Source: a virus
Reading direction: 5' to 3' (one strand)
UHGV virus genome: UHGV-0191544
DNA: 43,161 nt
Numbering within the stretch: position 1 is the first letter of the stretch; the number at the start of each line of letters is the position of its first letter. Below, piece after piece: positions 353-41,175 of the stretch. Below the pieces are notes generated by a model. The model was not told the origin of the DNA. It searched no databases and saw only the letters and a list, made by a program, of their open reading frames with translations. Position numbers and translations under genes: made by a program.

Positions 353-793
353 ACGTAAACTTTTTCCGGTTGTTGTCGATAGCTCTATATCCCTCAACCG
401 GAAAATAATAATAGTAAAATGCTTAGCCCTGCTAATAATCGCCTAATCCAAACGCCTCATTCATGTTCTGGTACAGTCGCTCAAATGTACTTCAGATGCG
501 CGGTTCGCTGATTTCCAGGACATTGTCGTCATTCAGTGACCTGTCCCGTGTATCACGGTCCTGCGAATTCATCAAGGAATGCATTGCGGAGTGAAGTATC
601 GAGTCACGCCATATTTCGCTATCAGGATTCTGTGTGATGGTTACATCGCCCGGCTCAGGGCTGTTTAGTCATCAGCGCTTTCTGACAGTGCTGAGATTTC
701 AACCTGTTGCAGTAAAAATGAGTAGATATAAGGCAAGTGTGCTGCCAAACCCATCTTTTACGGGGTGAAGGTAGATTTCGTTTGAAGGGTATC

Positions 794-808
794 TGGTGTC
801 CCCTGCAG
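794..808. repeat. att core, left copy (TGGTGTCCCCTGCAG), identical to the tRNA 3' end
   Basis: Exact 15-bp match to 41025..41039; flanks diverge immediately. Confidence 0.65.
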
Positions 809-867
809 ACATCTACTTGACGCGGCAGGGGATTGATTAGAATGGTGTTTTTTAGATGTGAGAAATA

Positions 868-887
868 TTTTACCCGCTATTTTACCC
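868..887. promoter_or_regulatory. Two TTTTACCC motifs beside the att core; candidate recombinase/RDF arm sites
   Basis: Same 8-mer (as GGGTAAAA) recurs at the integrase start 40865..40909; approx coordinates. Confidence 0.35.
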
Positions 888-1082
888 ATTGGCGCGGCTT
901 AAGAGCTTATTTTTGAATTCACAATGATCACGATATAACCATCTTGCTCGCCCGTGGATAACTTTGGCTTTTGGCAGGTCGCCGGACTTAATCCGGTCAT
1001 AGATGAAGGTTTTACCGAAGCCAGTATCGGCCATGATGAATTTCAAATCAACCAGGGAATCAGGTTGTAGTTCGTGTTGCAT
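882..1082 (-). CDS. torI: Excisionase / recombination directionality factor, TorI (KplE1) type, 66 aa
   Basis: 66-aa translation matches TorI as recalled (MQHELQPDSLVDLKF...); AlpA-like small HTH protein at prophage end. Confidence 0.8.
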   Translation of the reverse strand: MQHELQPDSLVDLKFIMADTGFGKTFIYDRIKSGDLPKAKVIHGRARWLYRDHCEFKNKLLSRANG

Positions 1083-1101: not shown

Positions 1102-1117
1102 GGAATCGAACCTGCAA
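1102..1117. repeat. 16-bp fragment identical to the T-arm segment of the tRNA (GGAATCGAACCTGCAA), displaced about 290 bp inside the prophage
   Basis: Exact match to 41039..41054; surrounding sequence cannot fold as a tRNA. Confidence 0.5.
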
Positions 1118-1318
1118 ATCAGGTAATAAAAAACCGCCATCAGGTGGCTTGGTGTTCTTTCAGTTCTTCAATTCGAATATTGGTTACGTCTGCATGCGCT
1201 ATCTGCGCCCATATCATCCAGTGGTCGTAGCAGTCGTTGATGTTCTCCGCTTCGATAACTCTGTTGAATGGTTCTCCATTCCATTCACCTGTTACTCGGA
1301 AGTGCATTTATCATCTCC

Positions 1319-1364: not shown

Positions 1365-2165
1365 TTAAGCGGCGTCGGTGAATTCAAATAAAAAACCGGC
1401 TTGCGCCGGCTCTCTCATCTTTCTGTCTACCCATGCTGATATCGATGGCGGGTGCACCTTTTCAATAGCAGCGCGAAGTACAGCTGTACGTGCCAGTTTG
1501 TCAGTAATCTCAGGAAATCGCTTCTCTGTCTTCGGTACGTTAACAGCAACATTAGTAGAATCCGCACTGGCGAACGGATACATACCAAGAACTCTCACGT
1601 CGAGCATTCGAAGACCATGAATTTTCACTTTCAAATTACGATTGATATAAAGCTCAGTGAAAACTTCATCCATTCTCTGTTCCCACCATTTAGAGCGTAT
1701 GTGCCTGTGTGGGCCGCAGCATCCAATCGCCACCCATTCAAATTTGCCAGAAAGGCGTAAAAGACGTTCAATTGATTCGTCGGTATGCCAGACCGGAACC
1801 GCTTTTGATTTTAGCCAATCAGGAACCAACTCAATCTGCTCGTCGTTTTCTGCCTCTGTCCCTTCGATAACGTCAGGTATAAGAAACCATTCAATTCTGC
1901 TGAACCACTTCCCAACAAAGTCGTAGAATTTTGCTCGCCTCTTACTCCAGTCTACCGGAGTGCCTTTCTTTAATGCTTTCATCCAGTCGCTAAAAGCACC
2001 GTTATCAAGGCGTATATCACAAGGGAACATGGCAATCTTTTTCATCTGCTCTGGTCTGGCAAATGAAACAAAAGCCCCACCATCACGGTAAAGGGCTTTA
2101 ATCAGCATATCTGTAGGGGCATGCTCATCACCCCATATTGGGCTGCCGTGAAAGTGGATGGTCAT
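1365..2165 (-). CDS. Hypothetical 266-aa protein, last gene of early-left operon; possible TGT/DpdA-like transglycosylase fold (speculative)
   Basis: Long ORF; motifs in TGT-like order (RLDNGAF, IPDVIEG, VAIGCCG, IHGLRMLD); no zinc CxCxxC..H motif seen. Confidence 0.3.
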   Translation of the reverse strand: MTIHFHGSPIWGDEHAPTDMLIKALYRDGGAFVSFARPEQMKKIAMFPCDIRLDNGAFSDWMKALKKGTPVDWSKRRAKFYDFVGKWFSRIEWFLIPDVIEGTEAENDEQIELVPDWLKSKAVPVWHTDESIERLLRLSGKFEWVAIGCCGPHRHIRSKWWEQRMDEVFTELYINRNLKVKIHGLRMLDVRVLGMYPFASADSTNVAVNVPKTEKRFPEITDKLARTAVLRAAIEKVHPPSISAWVDRKMREPAQAGFLFEFTDAA

Positions 2166-39709: not shown

Positions 39710-40864
39710 TCATATCTTTTCATCAAGCCAATCCGCCCACCACTGCATCATTTCTCTGCGCTTATCGAGATACTGAGCATGGTTGTAAATTCCACGCACA
39801 GAACCGCCGTTGGCATGTGCTAGTTGCACTTCAATAGCATCGGCGGGCCATTCGTGCTCGTTCATAATCGTGCTGAATTCATGCCTGAATCCGTGACCGC
39901 TTTCCAGACCCTCATAGCCAATTTGTTTGATCACAAGCAATACCGCGTTCTCGCAGATTGGCTTCTTCTTATCGTTGCGTCCGGCAAAAACAAACTCTGA
40001 TACTGGTTTAGTGATTGAGCTTAGCGTAGTGAGAAGTTCAACCACCTGGTCTGACATCGGGACCACATGAATTTTGCGTCCCTTCATCACACTGGCGTCG
40101 ATGGTGATAATCCTGTTTTCAAAATCGACGTTCTTCCATTGCATGGAGCGAAGCTCTTTCGTTCTGAGGGCTGTGTAGCGTAAAACTTTGGTCGCAATGA
40201 GCGATACGATGCTTCCTGAAAATGTTGCCAGTGCTTTGTTAAATGCCGGGATCTGGTCTGCAGGAAGAAACGGGAAGTTCTTCTTGCGGTATCCCTTCAT
40301 GGCGTCAGCAAGGTCAGGTGCCGGGTTATATTTAGCCCTGCCGGTGACAATAGCGTAACGGAAAACCTCGCCGCATCTTCTGCGTGCTTTGTTGGCTCGC
40401 TCCATTGCACCGCGATCTTCGAATCTGCGGATTACTTCCAGCAGTTGCATCGGCTCAATATCCTGAATCTCAAGACCGCCGATGATGGGTAAAATGTCGT
40501 CATCAAACATTTTGGCAAGTTCAGTCGCATATCCTACTGACCAGACTTGCTTCTTGTGCTCGTACCATTCCTTGTAAATGGCGCTAAAGGAATTGTTGTT
40601 AGACGAAGCCTTTTTCGCTTTTACCGGATCGATGCCAACCGAGATGTCTTTCCTCGCGGTCCATGCTTTATCTCTTGCCTCCTGCAAAGTCATTAGCGGA
40701 TATTTTCCTACGGTCAGGATTTTCTCCTTACCGTCAATCTTGTAGCGAAGCTGCCATACCTTTTTCCCGGATACAGGGACATAAAGGTACAGGCCATTAC
40801 CATCGAGAAGGCGGTATGGTTTTTCTTTCGGCTTTGCTGCTTCAATCTGCTTAACGGTGAGCAT
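39710..40864 (-). CDS. intS: Tyrosine integrase, P4/IntS type
   Basis: N-terminus LTVKQIEAAKPKEKPYRLLDGNGLYLYV typical of P4-family integrases; adjacent to tRNA; likely ATG at 40864. Confidence 0.9.
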   Translation of the reverse strand: MLTVKQIEAAKPKEKPYRLLDGNGLYLYVPVSGKKVWQLRYKIDGKEKILTVGKYPLMTLQEARDKAWTARKDISVGIDPVKAKKASSNNNSFSAIYKEWYEHKKQVWSVGYATELAKMFDDDILPIIGGLEIQDIEPMQLLEVIRRFEDRGAMERANKARRRCGEVFRYAIVTGRAKYNPAPDLADAMKGYRKKNFPFLPADQIPAFNKALATFSGSIVSLIATKVLRYTALRTKELRSMQWKNVDFENRIITIDASVMKGRKIHVVPMSDQVVELLTTLSSITKPVSEFVFAGRNDKKKPICENAVLLVIKQIGYEGLESGHGFRHEFSTIMNEHEWPADAIEVQLAHANGGSVRGIYNHAQYLDKRREMMQWWADWLDEKI

Positions 40865-40909: not shown

Positions 40910-41024
40910 GTCACGGAGTGCGGCTGTCAACGATCTGACGCGAACCATTACGAACTGTGAATCTGCGGAAGGCTTGATATTCAGGGAATTTTGCGGACTG
41001 GTACGGATGGGAGCGAACTGATAA

Positions 41025-41039
41025 ATGGTGTCCCCTGCA
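41025..41039. repeat. att core, right copy, forming the 3' end of the tRNA
   Basis: Exact 15-bp match to 794..808. Confidence 0.65.
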
Positions 41040-41099
41040 GGAATCGAACCTGCAATTAGCCCTTAGGAGGGGCTCGTTATATCCATTTAACTAAGAGGA
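41025..41099 (-). tRNA. argW: tRNA-Arg (anticodon CCU)
   Basis: Reverse complement reads GTCCTCTTAGTTAAATGGATATAACGAGCCCCTCCTAAGGGCTAATTGCAGGTTCGATTCCTGCAGGGGACACCA. Confidence 0.9.
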
Positions 41100-41175
41100 C
41101 AATGCGGCATGAGTATACCCGCTAATGGACTGCGGGGTAAGTACGCTGCCGCTCGATTGCTTAAACCCTCGCCAT

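Follow-up and report, generated by a model that had tools for sequence, protein, structure and literature searches.

Introduction

KplE1, HK620 and Sf6 serve as the reference systems for recombination modules whose attP is placed between the genes for excisionase and integrase. How expression of the excisionase is restrained in these modules is, to our knowledge, only partly understood; Menouni et al., in PNAS in 2013, are said to have described control of torI by Rho-dependent termination. Duplications of tRNA 3' fragments at prophage ends, the identity blocks of tRNA-integrating elements, were reportedly described by Reiter in 1989 and by Williams in 2002.

Several elements of the module are known from published work. 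The sites of TorI are 8-bp elements centred on GTTCG, and from two of them, I4 and I5, TorI represses the integrase promoter PintS (PMC2951348). The same att core has been published for KplE1, HK620 and Sf6 (PMC2951348) and for Kapi1 (PMC8787464), and a 135-bp attR was active in an in-vitro excision assay (PMC3509656).

Here, we analysed a stretch of 43,161 nucleotides, UHGV virus genome UHGV-0191544 (in the following, the window), which holds a P22-like prophage integrated in argW. An earlier note on this DNA had drawn attention to a 16-bp copy of the T-arm segment of the tRNA inside the prophage, and had suggested either a remnant of an older, longer attP homology split by acquisition of torI or a secondary recombination site.

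Integration module of the argW prophage

The argW gene for tRNA-Arg(CCT), found by ARAGORN, occupies positions 41026-41100 on the minus strand and contains both the att core (41026-41040) and the tRNA copy of the 16-mer (41040-41055). The 15-bp core TGGTGTCCCCTGCAG recurs at 794-808, the prophage/host junction on the torI side, where it reads CTGCAGGGGACACCA on the minus strand. The integrase gene intS (39710-40864, minus strand) encodes the domains Arm-DNA-bind_3, Phage_int_M and Phage_integrase (arm-binding, central and catalytic, respectively), and torI (882-1082, minus strand) is a 66-aa open reading frame for the recombination directionality factor (RDF, the excisionase), with all 66 residues aligning to TorI of PDB entry 1z4h (E = 6.6e-43).

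Around the 7-bp TGCAGGG, probably the overlap region, an inverted repeat GATGTC / GGTGTC places a putative phage core-type site C, AGTAGATGTC, at 808-817 on the minus strand; we infer this C / TGCAGGG / C' anatomy from the sequence and not from published footprints. Left of the core, the phage sequence resembles a T-loop in many lineages (TTCGATGTA directly followed by TGCAGGG; window 801-817 and 41026-41040; our loci L006-L032), and together with GACACC it forms an imperfect inverted repeat around the same 7 bp. Another inverted repeat, CCCCTGC (800-806) and GCAGGGG (825-831), joins the inner edge of the core to the P arm and is conserved, as CCCCTGC-N18-GCAGGGG, in related attP sites.

Two GGGTAAAA repeats in the P arm (868-875 and 880-887, minus strand), overlapping the 3' end of torI, represent the arm-type sites of IntS, for which a TAAA motif has been published (PMC2951348). 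The five TorI sites I1 to I5 follow one another on the minus strand at 41013-41020, 40993-41000, 40950-40957, 40940-40947 and 40930-40937, each 8 bp long and centred on GTTCG, GTCCG or GATCG, and their spacing and sequences agree with PMC2951348.

Upstream of torI, again on the minus strand, lie the Shine-Dalgarno (SD) region CGGAGATA at 1089-1096, the conserved element AGGTTCGATTCCC at 1101-1113, which we call the U box and which is conserved along with the SD region, and, at 1114-1126, TTACCTGATTTGC, the equivalent of the cII box that was annotated in HK620 as part of a 'phage integration' promoter. A terminator-like hairpin with a T-run, common to lambda and many lambdoid phages, follows at 1128-1148. 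Compared with lambda and HK620, a G-to-A exchange (GCCACC vs GCCGCC; window 1114-1148) weakens this hairpin, and the annotated cII box reads TTAC in the window, as it does in K-12 KplE1, vs TTGC in lambda and HK620. Homology with lambda and many lambdoids is limited to positions from about 1120/1125 to 1361, comprising an orf55 homologue, the hairpin and the T-run. As this homology ends at about 1120-1125, the conserved part of the torI-attP-intS module begins, on the upstream side, with the box.

Some further features of the neighbourhood were recorded. The right flank of the prophage is yfdC/mlaA-like, and the left flank (50-352) encodes the C-terminus of a LacY-family sugar permease, whereas K-12 and UTI89 have dsdC next to the prophage, so the argW-distal neighbourhood differs in the present strain. 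A 43-aa open reading frame (758-889, minus strand), equivalent to HK620 hkaB and Sf6 gene 17, spans the att core, and its C-terminal part is therefore host-encoded in the prophage state. The 266-aa open reading frame at 1365-2165 (minus strand) has no Pfam match; a gene of phage HK106 overlapping the homologous stretch (window ~1125-1400) is annotated as queuine tRNA-ribosyltransferase, from which the 266-aa product may be a DpdA/Tgt-like DNA-modification enzyme.

A 16-bp match to the tRNA T arm

The 16-mer GGAATCGAACCTGCAA has exactly two copies in the window, one at 1102-1117 (plus strand) and one at 41040-41055. In its minus-strand form, TTGCAGGTTCGATTCC, the copy upstream of torI is identical to the argW segment, so that the identity claimed in the earlier note stands, while the tRNA coordinates given there (41039 to 41054) were one base off. 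In the tRNA, this segment spans two bases of the variable loop, the 5' T-stem, the T-loop and the first two bases of the 3' T-stem, and it is contiguous with the core, with one G in common, so that the two together form a 30-mer at 41026-41055. On the left, the distance between them is 293 bp (809-1101) and includes torI, in line with the distance of about 290 bp noted before.

The match covers exactly 16 bp, the bases on both sides being different from the tRNA. By chance, about 1.2e-3 16-mers would be expected to be common to the tRNA of 75 nt and the remainder of the window, and shuffled sequences gave 0.04 matches even with two mismatches allowed; the resemblance is thus real and not due to chance. 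It was also correctly stated that the left-end copy cannot fold as a tRNA: ARAGORN finds only argW, and Rfam finds nothing tRNA-like, with no tRNA match in the window region 600-1500 even at E <= 10. A tRNA gene or pseudogene at 1102-1117 was accordingly discarded, with neither a cloverleaf nor a covariance-model match and with similarity that stops at the T-arm segment.

Conservation of the box

The 16-mer stands upstream of torI (hkaC) in HK620, Sf6, Kapi1 and K-12 KplE1, and in all modules of the HK620/Sf6/KplE1/CUS-3 type. One copy of the box each is present in the diverged modules of Salmonella phages Emek and g341c, whose RDFs are about 50% identical, and of Erwinia phage phiEt88 (RDF 39% identical), and in Erwinia phage Midgardsormr38 (our locus L006) the excisionase gene ORF37 is preceded by AGGTTCGATTCCC twice in tandem, at a distance of 16 nt. 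Scans of genomes and of IMG/VR added modules from Enterobacter, Citrobacter, Serratia, Pantoea and Edwardsiella as well as many uncultured ones. The earlier note would have given up its reading had the 16-mer turned out to occur at chance frequency in unrelated phages with no fixed position near att; the opposite was found, its position being strongly conserved in related argW phages.

Among the 89 different leaders, 59 carry GTTCGATT in intact form, four in degenerate form and 26 not at all; many of the 59 are related, and a part of the leader may have passed between clades by recombination, which would make the conservation look higher than it is. The set spans elements of E. coli, Salmonella, Erwinia, Serratia, Pantoea, Citrobacter, Enterobacter and Edwardsiella; in the three large RDF clades, 14/22, 16/19 and 28/35 leaders have the box, and eight small clades lack it. 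The order box, torI, core is common to all major RDF clades. Every module has the argW core TGCAGGGGAC, and with a core common to all elements, a search for co-variation of the 5' bases of the box with the respective att core had nothing to compare.

The invariant part of the box is GTTCGATTCC (1102-1111 in the window), and the U box as a whole extends one C past the identity with the tRNA and excludes TTGC. It is located 3-13 nt upstream of the SD sequence of the RDF gene, across a spacer that exists in at least nine forms, and is preceded by at least seven unrelated 5' contexts, and modules sharing the invariant GTTCGATTCC have RDFs with an identity as low as 39% (39-50%). The four bases TTGC, which bring the tRNA match to 16 nt instead of 12, are confined to the E. 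coli lineage, and related terminator-type lineages read TT(C/A/T)CAGG, equivalent to a 15/16 match to the tRNA 16-mer. Most copies of the box end in ...TTCCC, as opposed to ...TTCCT in the tRNA, which indicates a common ancestry of the copies and no repeated re-copying from the tRNA. A CCTG...CAGG dyad ending at the box was considered as part of a universal element and rejected, being found in terminator-type contexts only (24/54).

The box was cleanly lost from several apparently intact elements (in Dryocola, and our loci L182-L192) and is hence dispensable. A recurrent clean microhomology deletion of about 27 nt, between CCTGG and CCGG, removes the box and rebuilds the SD sequence by joining ..ttgcctgg to agata.. 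(L020, L182, L185, L187, L190 and L192). SNPs in the E. coli population showed no significant depletion in the box, with 2 of 13 sites variable vs 19 of 66 synonymous sites, few sites and few loci being available for this comparison.

The best reading of this pattern is that the box would be an old, selectively maintained element, (A)GGTTCGATTCC(C), of which the 16-mer would be the form found in the E. coli lineage. Its nearly unchanged presence upstream of the excisionase gene in many argW phages probably points to a regulatory role.

Possible functions of the box

In the tRNA, and thus in attB, the sequence directly 5' of the presumed 7-bp overlap, the 'B' side consisting of the T-loop and the first 3' T-stem bases, agrees with the box at 12 of 12 positions. 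The box has six variants among the modules with both sites. In each of the 33 modules where a U box is present and the att core could be mapped, 10 or more of the 12 positions are those of the tRNA, 8 of the 12 being fixed by the search pattern used; the phage core-type site C has 36 variants with a mean of 5.5/12. The variable positions of the U box (TCC to TTC) are those at which B and C differ, and its invariant TTCGAT is common to B and to many C sites. Moreover, the U box is constant in modules whose RDF repeats in the P' arm switched from GTTCG to (A/G)TTACC. All the modules target argW, and their integrases must recognise the tRNA sequence whatever the specificity of the RDF and the arm-type sites, which suggests an orphan B-like half-site. 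We therefore favour, tentatively and at somewhat less than an even chance, a cis-element kept by selection at the upstream end of the torI-attP-intS module, most likely an orphan core-type (B-like) IntS half-site that would lower the expression of torI.

The box would then be read as DNA within the leader of torI, the candidate reader being IntS bound to the orphan half-site. Box-bound IntS might be bridged to the arm-type sites at 868-887, about 215-250 bp away at the 3' end of torI, and its occupancy could hinder read-through transcription or translation of torI. The excisionase would thereby be kept low as long as integrase is present, favouring integration and maintenance of the prophage. 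That core-type half-sites are usually weak integrase binders on their own counts against this proposal. As for modules in other tRNA genes, which might show whether the box tracks the tRNA, F116-type Pseudomonas phages have convergent int and RDF genes, and five loci of distant IntS-family integrases showed other layouts or a gene abutting the RDF gene. The further idea that the box is an attB mimic controlling directionality, where integrase occupancy of a tRNA half-site copy in the leader, possibly looped to the arm-type sites, would gate excisionase synthesis, is a speculative one that we consider possible but doubtful.

The box contains GTTCG, which makes a TorI operator a fair candidate: as a sixth TorI-type site, it would let the excisionase repress its own gene. 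The site in the window, AGGTTCGA, indeed has the form of an 8-bp GTTCG-type element, in some lineages CAGTTCGA matches I1/I3 at 7/8 positions, and the two tandem copies of Midgardsormr38 would suit an operator. However, the same U box is present in at least four modules (L173, L179, L180 and phiEt88) whose P'-arm repeats are (A/G)TTACC, with no GTTCG, and whose RDF recognition region is different, although the phiEt88 leader is possibly recombinant and hence makes a weak case. The invariant block also runs 4-5 nt past the 8-bp TorI site, where real sites vary. Finally, TorI binding is highly cooperative on arrays (PMC3509656), whereas the U box is normally single; the 2-nt or 12-nt spacing of arrayed TorI sites is not found for the box, the only multiple case being the 16 nt of Midgardsormr38. 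Taken together, we regard an operator as unlikely. As a separate observation, the int-side arm repeats (40930-41020 in the window; also L009, L011, L173, L179 and L180) co-vary with the putative recognition region of the RDF, those of the GKTFIY type being paired with GTTCG/GTTCT repeats and those of the FT(A/S)KYFYSQI type with (A/G)TTACC repeats.

Alternatively, the box might have no function and be left over from an older, longer homology between attP and the tRNA, or from a captured piece of tRNA, being kept only by linkage to the ribosome-binding region of torI or as a passive boundary for module exchange. The contiguity of the 16-mer and the core in the tRNA would fit this, as would the 15/16 match of the terminator-type lineages, which includes argW-specific bases of the T-stem and the variable loop, and the loss of the box without obvious harm. 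It also lies exactly at a mosaic boundary, a short conserved block behind unrelated 5' contexts, where the 'boundary sequence' of the Sf6 annotation, bsq2, ends. Against a relic, a neutral sequence would have decayed, yet the box is perfectly kept between a randomised spacer and a randomised 5' flank and beside RDFs that are only 39-50% identical; it varies far less than the functional C site, and its usual ...TTCCC is not that of the tRNA. The proposed split by acquisition of torI could not be demonstrated either: no unsplit arrangement of T-arm and core was found in a phage attP, all full-length matches being argW-containing prophage-derived records or phage-borne tRNA genes, the box-torI-core order is that of all major RDF clades, and the supposed insert would also need to carry the P-arm integrase sites. 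The remnant proposed earlier may be right on origin but wrong on present status; an origin from the tRNA/attB is plausible, and the box was probably derived from it and then put to use, with convergence on a site preferred by the integrase as another possible origin. A relic without function is rather unlikely in our view.

In HK620, a PI-like promoter with a cII box is annotated over the box, and the 'boundary sequence' of Sf6 ends there. Following the HK620 and Sf6 annotations, TTGC would be the second cII half-site of a lambda-type PI promoter and the rest of the box its spacer. The position is homologous to that in lambda, where the same hairpin and T-run are followed by the TTGC-N6-TTGC of PI. 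The spacing is nevertheless N5 and not N6 (TTAC-N5-TTGC in the window, TTGC-N5-TTGC in HK620 and Sf6), and TTGC, unlike GTTCGATTCC, is not conserved beyond the E. coli lineage, so that a promoter leaves the invariance of the GTTCGATTCC block unexplained. No sigma-70-like promoter was found either (0 sites in 750-1450), which is weak evidence given a crude scan and the poor matches that cII-dependent promoters show by nature. This explanation appears improbable.

More improbable still is an element acting in the RNA of the torI leader, either as a T-loop mimic or as an anti-SD sequence, UUCC pairing with GGAG, that would tune translation. The box does lie in the sense strand of the leader near the SD sequence, and UUCC can pair with GGAG in all variants, the C-to-T variant keeping a G-U pair. 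No stable or unusual fold (z = 0.06) and no Rfam match was obtained, T-stem pairing is not maintained, and the distance to the SD sequence varies between 3 and 13 nt, with a helix of 4 bp being marginal.

As for a secondary att site, the two 16-mers, perfect direct repeats that bracket almost the whole prophage, would recombine site-specifically or by short homology in an alternative excision that leaves torI behind, and the GenBank record of phage CUS-3 (CP000711) is in fact delimited by them, labelled 'attL core' and 'attR core'. Two products would be expected of an exchange between the 16-mers: a deletion junction that joins the 5' part of the tRNA through the 16-mer to the torI leader, and a circle junction in which the leader and the 16-mer are followed by the core and the P' arm. 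Among 5,426 complete E. coli genomes, none shows the deletion junction, with no match extending across the 16-mer, and IMG/VR contained neither junction (0 contigs). The core used experimentally is CTGCAGGGGACACCAT (PMC2951348, PMC3509656), and the att site of Kapi1 has the same core (PMC8787464). The inner primer of the active 135-bp attR maps to positions 886-905 of the window, about 200 bp short of the 16-mer, which is therefore not needed for excision in vitro. In the window, the box is followed by neither a TGCAGGG overlap region nor a GACACC inverted partner half-site, and the 16-mer lies 293 bp inside the prophage/host junction (794-808) and not at it, likewise in UTI89/CUS-3. Lying outside the active attR, with no overlap region, no partner half-site and no hybrid junctions found, a secondary recombination site is effectively refuted.

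The CUS-3 label itself can probably be explained. CUS-3 has an integrase and a P' arm of the HK620 type, and the last 900 nt of CUS-3 are matched at 100% identity in UTI89, which has torI and an HK620-type core directly past the point where the CUS-3 record ends. The torI-side core of UTI89 carries a 1-bp deletion (TGGTGTCCCTGCAG; L202:470-830), which makes the 16-mer the longest perfect repeat in this strain and so probably accounts for the annotation. The 'att core' label on the 16-mer is apparently in error, and the CUS-3 record (L001/L005), being delimited by the 16-mer, lacks torI and the true att core.

Comparison with known systems

The box is mentioned neither in the papers on the KplE1 module consulted here, including PMC2951348 and PMC3509656, nor, by its sequence and in connection with phages, in the searchable literature. 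It has been seen and mislabelled three times in GenBank, and its conservation, as far as can be told, went unrecognised. It can mislead the calling of prophage boundaries, and tools relying on the longest direct repeat that matches a tRNA risk an error of the CUS-3 type. As a short and deeply conserved attB-like sequence at the ribosome-binding region of torI, it offers a concrete and easily mutated candidate for a missing control element, and one that can be tested directly in KplE1, HK620 or Kapi1.

The closest described system is the module of KplE1, HK620 and Sf6, torI-attR ... attL-intS, studied by Panis, Ansaldi and co-workers. The window has this module, with identical TorI and IntS, the core CTGCAGGGGACACCA, the five GTTCG-type sites in their published spacing and the GGGTAAAA arm-type sites. 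The box, upstream of torI, falls beyond the attR and attL regions that had been mapped and employed in vitro. The CUS-3 'attL core/attR core' (CP000711) is the same pair of 16-mers, with the difference that the 16-mer is situated 293 bp inside the true junction.

Compared with the duplications of tRNA 3' fragments at prophage ends, the box likewise has the same sequence as a part of the target tRNA, again directly oriented and near the end of the prophage. In contrast to them, it is off the junction and apart from the core, it is conserved rather than decaying, and it covers the 5' T-stem and the T-loop, which are not duplicated by the crossover.

With the PI promoter and cII box of lambda and the lambdoid 'boundary sequences', the box shares its position relative to xis/torI and the upstream hairpin as well as the mosaic junction. 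The spacing of the tetrads and the hexamers of PI are not found here, and the conserved part is a T-loop-like block and not the TTGC repeats.

Lambda-type core half-sites (B, B', C and C') resemble the box in sequence, with 12/12 positions identical to the B side and TTCGAT as in many C sites. Unlike those, it is an orphan with no overlap region or inverted partner, placed in the leader of a gene about 290 bp from the core. If the attB mimic considered above were true, it would represent a previously undescribed coupling between integrase level and RDF expression in a tRNA-integrating phage, and would replace the PI/sib logic of lambda where attP sits between xis and int.
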